Shown: in pieces, positions 53,369 to 53,623 of the stretch
How positions within the stretch are numbered: position 1 is the stretch's first letter
How the letters are laid out: every line of letters starts with the position of its first letter
NCBI GenBank assembly: GCA_034521955.1
Contig: JAXHLT010000006.1
Location: 65,528-129,527, forward strand
Length of the DNA stretch: 64,000 nucleotides
Source: Halanaerobiales bacterium
GTDB taxonomy: Bacteria > Bacillota > Halanaerobiia > Halanaerobiales > M55B127
Direction: 5' to 3'
Translations under genes and position numbers: made by a program
The notes under the pieces: model-generated
What the model was told of the DNA's origin: nothing
What the model saw: only the letters and a program-made list of their open reading frames with translations
Database searches by the model: none

Positions 53369-53623
53369 ATGGTAGAACTTTCACCAGAAATAATTGAAAT
53401 GGTTATACGAAGTGCTTCTGTAATTGCTGCAGGGCTTGCTTTAATAGCGGGTATAGGACCCGGTGTAGGAATGGGTTATGCAGCTGGTAAAGCTACTTCT
53501 GCTGTAAGAAGACAACCGGAAGCGCGTGGCTCAATTGTGACAACGATGTTGTTAGGACAAATTATTTCAGGTTCAACTGGAATATATTCTCTGGTAATTG
53601 CTATTTATTTAGTGTTTACCTAA
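53369..53623 (+). CDS. F-type ATP synthase subunit c paralog lacking the ion-binding Gln and Glu
   Basis: 84 aa hairpin, collinear with the downstream atpE (59/84 identical by hand alignment). Keeps the [10 protein letters not shown] glycine motif and the RRQPE loop, but has Met35 for Gln35 and Gly68 for Glu68. GGGAGG RBS. Confidence 0.8.

Follow-up and report, generated by a model that had tools for sequence, protein, structure and literature searches.

Subunit c forms the rotor ring of F-type ATPases, and the F-type ATPase (atp) operon of a Halanaerobiales bacterium, a halophilic anaerobe, encodes two copies of it. We analyzed this operon within a 64,000-nucleotide (nt) stretch of contig JAXHLT010000006.1 (assembly GCA_034521955.1, positions 65,528 to 129,527 of the forward strand), which we call the window and to which all coordinates refer. 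Based on open reading frames (ORFs) and Pfam matches, the operon is complete, lies on the + strand and ends with its last gene at 59938. The upstream copy, which we named c', has its own start and stop codons and is located directly 3' of atpB, the gene of stator subunit a, in the window and in all related loci. The following features concern the two copies, c' and its downstream partner c, and the gene between them.

53356..53361, +: Shine-Dalgarno sequence GGGAGG of c', 7 nt 5' of its ATG, read from the sequence
53369..53623, +: c', an F-type subunit c paralog of 84 amino acids (aa), a single hairpin without the ion-binding Gln and Glu
53471..53473, +: Met35 codon ATG of c', in the column of the helix-1 Gln32 (aligned to 1yce and 3zk1)
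53507..53518, +: cytoplasmic loop R47-R48-Q49-P50 of c'
53570..53572, +: Gly68 codon GGT of c', in the column of the essential helix-2 carboxylate (aligned to 1yce, 3zk1 and 4bem_J)
53573..53587, +: stretch with the Ser69, Thr70 and Tyr73 codons of c', residues of the Na+ site that are kept
53642..54061, +: atpI, 139 aa, between the c' and c genes (PF03899, E = 3.5e-7)
54070..54079, +: Shine-Dalgarno-like AGAAGGGGGG of c, 8 nt 5' of the ATG at 54088, read from the sequence
54088..54345, +: atpE, canonical Na+-type c, 85 aa, with Gln35, Glu68, Ser69, Thr70, Tyr73 and an ARDP loop (PF00137, 69.7 bits)
54232..54234, +: Asp49 codon GAT in the c loop, where RQP has become RDP

The 464 nt separating the two subunit c genes are occupied by atpI and do not form a spacer, which had been overlooked in an earlier note made on this DNA from the sequence alone. 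The true start of c is the ATG at 54088 and not the one at 54058, as homologues begin with MVEF.

BLASTP aligned c' and c without gaps at 59 of 84 identical positions (E = 5e-39), the same count that the earlier note had reached by hand. Their calculated average masses, without modification, are 8551 Da (c') and 8650 Da (c). Both proteins score above the cut-offs of the relevant profiles, with 56.0 bits for c' and 69.7 bits for c against PF00137 (cut-off 24) and 61.8 and 80.6 bits, respectively, against TIGR01260 (cut-off 43.95). An AlphaFold2 model of c' shows a helical hairpin with helices at positions 6-48 and 50-83 (pLDDT, a per-residue model confidence score, of 92), and its best Foldseek matches are the Na+ rotor-ring subunits 3zk1_A, 1yce_A and 4bem_A. 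The glycine packing motif of helix 1 (GxGxGxG type) is present as GIGPGVGMG, and the polar loop facing F1 reads RRQP, which includes the canonical RQP. By profile, fold, glycine motif, loop and operon position, c' is therefore an F-type subunit c; what it lacks is the helix-2 carboxylate. Likewise, the residues with which a Na+-type subunit c lines its own site are replaced (Met35, Gly68), while the Ser-Thr...Tyr part of the motif is present.

The assignment of these two columns in the earlier note is confirmed by phmmer alignments. Met35 of c' stands opposite Gln32 and Gly68 opposite Glu65 of Ilyobacter tartaricus c (1yce), the same holds for Fusobacterium nucleatum c (3zk1), and in Acetobacterium woodii c1 (4bem_J) the counterpart of Gly68 is the Gln in its site-less second hairpin. 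The codons of c' and c differ by two bases at column 35 (ATG vs CAG) and again at column 68 (GGT vs GAG), so a single base-call error was rightly dismissed. A relocated carboxylate, as exemplified by the E. coli D61G/A24D mutant, is ruled out: c' has just four acidic residues (E3, E7, E10 and E51), with none between positions 11 and 50 or beyond 51 and thus none in the middle of the membrane. Taken together, c' is a full-length F-type subunit c paralog lacking both residues of its own ion site; the ribosome-binding site, glycine motif, RQP loop and complete ORF reported for it are all there. The description of the downstream copy as an intact Na+-type c has to be qualified. It carries the full set of Gln, Glu, Ser, Thr and Tyr, but its loop is an unusual ARDP and not RQP.

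Conservation of c' and origin of the two-c operon

In a search of 5.8 billion proteins, the best 120 matches were inspected. They include a protein identical to c' from Halanaerobiales metagenome-assembled genomes (MAGs) and about 95 further c' proteins, all with the same two changes. Among the carriers are Halanaerobium praevalens, H. saccharolyticum, H. hydrogeniformans and Halanaerobium sp. Z-7514, and c' is present in H. congolense-type operons, too. Pooling of proteins and loci yielded a c' family with 118 distinct members from Halanaerobium and its relatives among the Halanaerobiales, to which the following frequencies refer. Column 35 is Met in 117 of 118, the lone Arg coming from a 599-nt contig. 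At column 68, Gly (72%), Ala (22%) and Ser (5%) occur, and Glu, Asp and Gln are absent. Ser69 (100%), Thr70 (98%) and Tyr73 (98%) are retained, and Arg47, Arg48, Gln49 and Pro50 are invariant, although no more than 23 of the 83 aligned columns are so as a whole. Relative to c, the family shows systematic shifts (Ala65 to Val/Ile, Val66 to Ile, Val43 to Thr, Val80 to Phe/Tyr), which render the pocket bulkier or smaller, not polar.

Ratios of non-synonymous to synonymous substitution (dN/dS) were calculated pairwise by the Nei-Gojobori method, with medians taken over 12-14 operons. They amount to 0.10 for c', 0.05 for c, 0.085 for a, 0.14 for both AtpI and b, 0.23 for delta and 0.29 for AtpZ; c' is constrained about as tightly as stator subunit a. 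At non-synonymous sites c' evolves ~3.6 times faster than c (mean dN 0.153 vs 0.042). The median proportion of synonymous differences (pS) is 0.66 for c' and 0.49 for c, and the lower value hints that c is more highly expressed than c'. The c' ORF is intact in 35 two-c loci and 10 further operons (~45), wherever the contig covers the gene. Because the orthologues form a family with the same substitutions, because dN/dS is ~0.10 and because c' occupies a fixed operon slot without disruption in ~45 operons, these comparisons strongly support a functional and conserved gene, not a decaying duplicate. The earlier note had regarded this copy as functional rather than decayed and had pointed to orthologs with Gly and Met at the two columns and to purifying selection as checks; both bear its view out, with Ala and Ser as additional residues at column 68. 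We conclude that Halanaerobium-type bacteria maintain c' by selection as a genuine component of their Na+-F1Fo ATPase.

The remaining features of the operon in the window are:

52412..52636, +: atpZ-like first gene of the operon, 74 aa (PF09527 ATPase_gene1, E = 3.5e-13), a slot common to all related operons
52674..53333, +: atpB, Fo stator subunit a, 219 aa (PF00119, E = 4.9e-53), with the essential Arg in SHSFRLFGN
54356..54376, +: G+C-rich hairpin and subsequent T-run, just 3' of the c stop codon (terminator-like scan; folding-energy z-score -3.0)
54450..54950, +: subunit b (ORF and Pfam)
54947..55507, +: subunit delta (ORF and Pfam)
55517..57106, +: subunit alpha, 529 aa (ORF)
57149..58030, +: subunit gamma (ORF; aligns to homologues)
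58044..59510, +: subunit beta, 488 aa (ORF)
59513..59938, +: subunit epsilon (ORF; aligns to homologues)

The order AtpZ-a-c'-AtpI-c-b is found in every two-c locus (~45 operons). The closest relatives with a single c (L069, L074, L076-L083, L088 and L132/L133) encode a c that is 90-95% identical to the window c, and their order is AtpZ-AtpI-a-c-b, which is ancestral. Thus, atpI precedes atpB in single-c relatives, and all two-c operons have it between c' and c. In L132/L133, the single-c loci whose flank extends far enough, the chromosomal neighborhood is the same as in two-c loci, comprising prmC, sua5, rpiB, upp and a family-4 glycosyltransferase gene. Since single-c relatives combine the usual gene order with the same neighborhood, the two-c operon is a derived rearrangement of an ordinary Na+-type operon. 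A possible route is a tandem duplication of atpI-a-c followed by the loss of one atpI and one a.

Phylogenetic placement points to a local origin. The c' clade adjoins the Halanaerobiales c in the tree and persists when the two diagnostic columns are removed, with a bootstrap of 0.56 that is modest for 82 columns. We therefore regard c' as a recent duplicate of the local Halanaerobiales c that is unrelated to c1. Two sister proteins of c', P0095 and P0105, occupy the upstream slot and have the RRQP loop yet keep Gln35 and Glu68. The surroundings of P0095 read AtpZ-a-[P0095]-AtpI, and in L049 a normal downstream c begins next, with MVEFSPDVIDTIIRAAA. The upstream RRQP copies with Gln35 and Glu68 are encoded at:

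L049, 1116..1373
L050, 1048..1305
L051, 669..926

These copies look like an intermediate state, already duplicated and with the site still present. Gene conversion from c is an unlikely source for them, because the RRQP loop lies between the retained c-type columns Gln35 and Glu68 and a single tract from an ARDP c would hardly leave it in place.

A wider survey used cluster representatives at 50% identity. Among the best 150, one other carboxylate-free single-hairpin protein was found, P0205, in which Thr occupies the Gln column and Gly the Glu column, STGIY is retained and the loop is a degenerate AKYP. In L043 (1..1639), its gene is located directly downstream of a two-carboxylate Glu/Glu c of the F. 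nucleatum type, giving the order a-c-c', and this lineage does not show the atpI rearrangement. Two further clusters, P0301 and P0308, share the features of P0205 and are 74-79% identical. For P0308 and for P0387, a c of the Glu/Glu type, the longest contig on record measures 44,550 nt in both cases and is presumably shared. On this evidence, an unfused c that has exchanged Glu for Gly and kept Ser/Thr/Tyr seems to have arisen at least twice independently.

The survey also contained many fused multi-hairpin c proteins (representatives P0121-P0200) with 3-5 hairpins each and two with 7 and 9. Often only one or two of their hairpins carry Glu and the others Gln, as in P0121 (435 aa; Glu, Gln, Gln, Gln, Gln); further examples are P0124 (411 aa), P0126 (406 aa) and P0180 (968 aa). 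Rings built from such proteins would have very few ion sites.

Several other traits of the operons were observed. Promoter-like matches that could serve c internally are no commoner than in shuffled sequence. The hairpin at 54356..54376 belongs to a type with 8-10 bp that lies 11-14 nt past the c stop codon and before atpF; its position is kept in most related operons, its sequence differs between lineages, and the T-run is weak in most loci. Equivalents were found in L001, L005, L006, L040, L042, L045, L055-L064, L072, L074 and L087. It could be a partial terminator or an mRNA-stabilizing element that raises c over the downstream subunits. The window alpha ends in a strongly acidic tail (57020..57106) that reaches beyond the alpha of the single-c relative L132, alpha lengths among relatives ranging from 510 to 548 aa, and beta ends in a Lys/Glu-rich tail (59440..59510; 488 aa vs 471 aa in L132). 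On the divergent, Halanaerobiales-like contig L047, genes for the V-type ATPase subunits A, B and D (296..4082) are found immediately upstream of an F-type two-c operon, so at least some such organisms hold both rotary ATPases side by side.

A proposed mixed rotor ring and the alternatives

Based on these observations, we propose that c' is an ion-free protomer co-assembled with canonical c in a heteromeric Na+-F1Fo rotor ring, where it would lower the number of Na+ ions per ATP; we put the probability of this reading at about 0.6. Each c' would take one hairpin position in the ring. Its own site would be empty, plugged by hydrophobic or small residues, while a backbone carbonyl and Ser69, and probably Thr70 and Tyr73 as well, would be given to the Na+ site of the adjacent c. 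A ring of N hairpins would then carry N minus n(c') ions per turn. With fewer Na+ per ATP, ATP hydrolysis could build a steeper Na+ gradient, at the price that a larger gradient would be needed for ATP synthesis. A lower-ratio, ATP-driven Na+ pump would fit strict fermenters living at molar external Na+.

Support for the mixed ring is indirect and comes from the kept neighbor-donated ligands, the matched loops and the convergent second lineage. In known Na+ rings, Ser66 O-gamma and Val63 O are donated by the adjacent subunit, Tyr70 and Ser66 form hydrogen bonds with Glu65, and a liganding water is held by Thr67 (PMC3692424). Because Ser69, Thr70 and Tyr73 are kept in c' and this Ser is one that is donated to the neighbor, a c' placed beside c could complete the neighbor's site. 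Such a donation would provide a reason for selection on these three residues, which a role outside the ring does not.

The loops point in the same direction. The window c is 92-99% identical across relatives, and its loop reads A47-R48-D49-P50 in all two-c operons (21/21 distinct sequences, 35/35 loci). In the closest single-c relatives the loop is ARQP or GRQP, with Gln49 in 13/13 distinct sequences. Compared with the ancestral ARQP, c' has gained a positive charge (Arg47) and c a negative one (Asp49). A negative charge in this loop is not neutral, since the E. coli substitution cQ42E uncouples F1 from Fo and is suppressed by changes in epsilon. As such a charge is fixed in c only where c' exists, the matched changes suggest that c and c' work together, either loop to loop or at the shared gamma/epsilon foot. 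No adaptation of subunit a to c' is evident: the a of the window shares 67% identity with its counterpart in a single-c relative, and two-c and single-c relatives have near-identical ion-path helices.

Several points weigh against the mixed ring. No expression data for a Halanaerobium c' were found, nor any direct sign that it is expressed or present in a ring. In a fused c10 ring of Bacillus PS3, a single cE56Q abolished ATP synthesis, ATP-driven H+ pumping and ATP hydrolysis sensitive to dicyclohexylcarbodiimide (DCCD), and the bacterial enzyme is strongly inhibited when the carboxylate is modified or mutated (PMC8809890). Tolerance of a site-less protomer can therefore not be taken for granted: c' lies outside the working ring, or the Halanaerobiales enzyme, like that of A. 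woodii, has adapted to it. The replacing residue in c' is Gly, Ala or Ser and not the Gln of A. woodii c1. In the divergent c' of L047, Thr70 and Tyr73 are lost while the partner c is still of the Na+ type, an exception that weakens the neighbor-ligand argument for Thr and Tyr and not for Ser. The loop association may reflect one ancestral event and not repeated co-evolution. The epsilon position preceding the conserved His, which could pair with the c loop, varies among two-c lineages (Arg, Lys, Arg, Asp, Lys) and is Gly in the sole single-c lineage available. Neighbor-joining trees of a and alpha do not settle how often the operon type changed: the types interleave at short, poorly supported deep branches, and the monophyly tests were weakened by the mislabeled loci L043 and L070.

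Some of these points have been taken up in other explanations. One of them, which we consider unlikely, is that c' acts with AtpI as an assembly or scaffold factor, nucleating or templating the c ring and then leaving it or staying off the ion path. The displacement of atpI to a place between c' and c in every two-c operon would agree with this, as would the description of AtpI as an assembly factor and not a subunit in PMC7911925; the possible loss of ring function through a site-less protomer (PMC8809890) would favor a c' outside the ring, and its higher pS hints at a lower expression than that of c. However, the ring-packing features, the RQP loop and Ser69/Thr70/Tyr73 would be superfluous for a transient chaperone, and the convergent second lineage manages without the atpI rearrangement. 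Alternatively, c' might form a homo-oligomeric ring of its own or replace c conditionally, resulting in uncoupled, locked or regulatory complexes. It has all features needed to oligomerize and a start signal separate from that of c. We nevertheless find this improbable: both genes belong to one operon without a convincing internal promoter, a ring of c' only could move no ions, which leaves the conservation of Ser/Thr/Tyr unexplained, and the altered loop of c in the presence of c' speaks for an interaction of the two.

The pocket of c' could also be altered instead of empty, with Ser67, Gly68, Ser69, Thr70, Tyr73 and backbone carbonyls binding a structural Na+ or water. Column 67 has gained a hydroxyl (Ser in 80% of c' vs Ala in 100% of c), the 67/68 pairs are SG, SA, AG or AS and never AA, and carboxylate-free Na+ sites made of carbonyls and hydroxyls exist in other membrane proteins. 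The hydrophobic Met in place of the helix-1 ligand in 117 of 118 sequences and the bulkier columns 65 and 66 look more like a filled pocket, and by the established rotary mechanism the stator Arg would lack a release partner without the carboxylate, so that an ion bound there could not serve in coupling; we give this variant little credence. Practically negligible is the chance that c' is a decaying duplicate or a sequencing artefact. The loss of a residue held essential for c function and the faster rate in dN are what such an origin would predict, but we reject both error and pseudogene in view of a dN/dS of ~0.10, ORFs intact throughout ~45 operons, 118 orthologues and changes of two bases in each codon.

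The mixed ring of c and c' thus remains our preferred explanation. A more specific version of it is attractive, and we advance it only tentatively because we would not expect it to hold in full: in an unfused c + c' rotor, the charges of Arg47 in c' and Asp49 in c might set the arrangement and expression could set the ratio, resulting in a tunable, V-type-like low-gear Na+ pump. Such an enzyme would be a living intermediate of proteolipid evolution, with duplication and site loss and no fusion, that appears to have arisen at least twice independently.

Significance and comparison with known systems

To our knowledge, the gear ratio of rotary ATPases, that is the number of ions per ATP, is normally fixed by ring size, and the only known way of lowering it is the fusion of hairpins followed by site loss, as in V-type and A-type proteolipids and A. 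woodii c1. A free-standing site-less protomer, if true, would be a different route by which the ratio is in principle adjustable through subunit stoichiometry, and it would mean that sites can be lost before genes are fused, or instead of fusion. Such a protomer would also be at odds with engineered H+ rings, in which a single dead protomer was found to stop the motor and in view of which a natural, selected and unfused protomer of this kind is surprising, and it would provide a natural system for studying how the stator arginine passes an uncharged position. The question is also relevant to the way in which strictly fermentative halophiles export Na+ against molar gradients. Because Halanaerobium is cultivable and Na+ c-rings are stable in sodium dodecyl sulfate (SDS), the ring composition is directly testable.

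Our literature searches found no paper tying Halanaerobium or Halanaerobiales to atpE or a subunit c. They agree with the statement of the earlier note that no single-hairpin, carboxylate-free F-type c has been characterized: no description of an unfused one was found, with an earlier mention possible in Brandt and Mueller 2015, which lay outside their reach, or in Matthies et al. 2014. The papers on hybrid rotors that we found describe the fused c1 type only (PMC7911925).

The closest known case is this c1 of A. woodii and C. aceticum (4BEM), in which the first hairpin carries "Q....ET" and the second "Q....QT"; the accepted effect of the mixed ring is a smaller number of Na+ sites and a lower Na+/ATP ratio (PMC7911925). 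As there, a site-less hairpin is encoded ahead of a normal Na+-type c in the atp operon of a Na+-dependent anaerobe, and this hairpin keeps the downstream Thr/Ser and Tyr. Whereas c1 has ~182 aa and four helices and its hairpins are linked 1:1, c' is free-standing and unfused, with 84 aa. Its site columns hold Met and Gly/Ala/Ser, unlike the Gln residues of c1 (Q..QT). The Halanaerobiales operon also differs from that of A. woodii in having atpI between the c genes and an RDP loop in the canonical c. The site-less hairpin of c1 is part of a working mixed ring. Metagenome operons of the A. woodii type, with a double-hairpin c1 (Gln/Glu, Gln/Gln) followed by a single-hairpin Na+-type c, were also observed (L111, L121, L122, L124, L125 and L127-L131); in L128 an additional Gln/Glu hairpin match brings the c-type matches to four, suggesting a longer fusion.

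The homomeric Na+ c11 rings of I. tartaricus and Propionigenium modestum (1YCE) and of F. nucleatum (3ZK1) provide the best sequence and fold matches, with 56-57% identity. The window c shares their full set of Gln, Glu, Ser, Thr and Tyr, and c' keeps the Ser/Thr/Tyr half. These rings have a single type of protomer and bear a site at each interface, whereas c' supplies neither Gln nor Glu.

In V- and A-type proteolipids, according to PMC9171764, carboxylate-free hairpins reduce the ions carried per turn and shift the enzyme toward pumping. The same principle of site loss connects c' with eukaryotic V-ATPase c and archaeal multi-hairpin c. Those are fusion proteins from another class of ATPase, whereas c' is an unfused F-type subunit and represents duplication and site loss without fusion. 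Engineered rings (PS3 fused c10 E56Q, E. coli D61 mutants, DCCD-modified c) resemble the proposed one in containing a protomer without a usable carboxylate. In these, coupled activity is lost (PMC8809890), whereas c' is a natural protein kept by selection.

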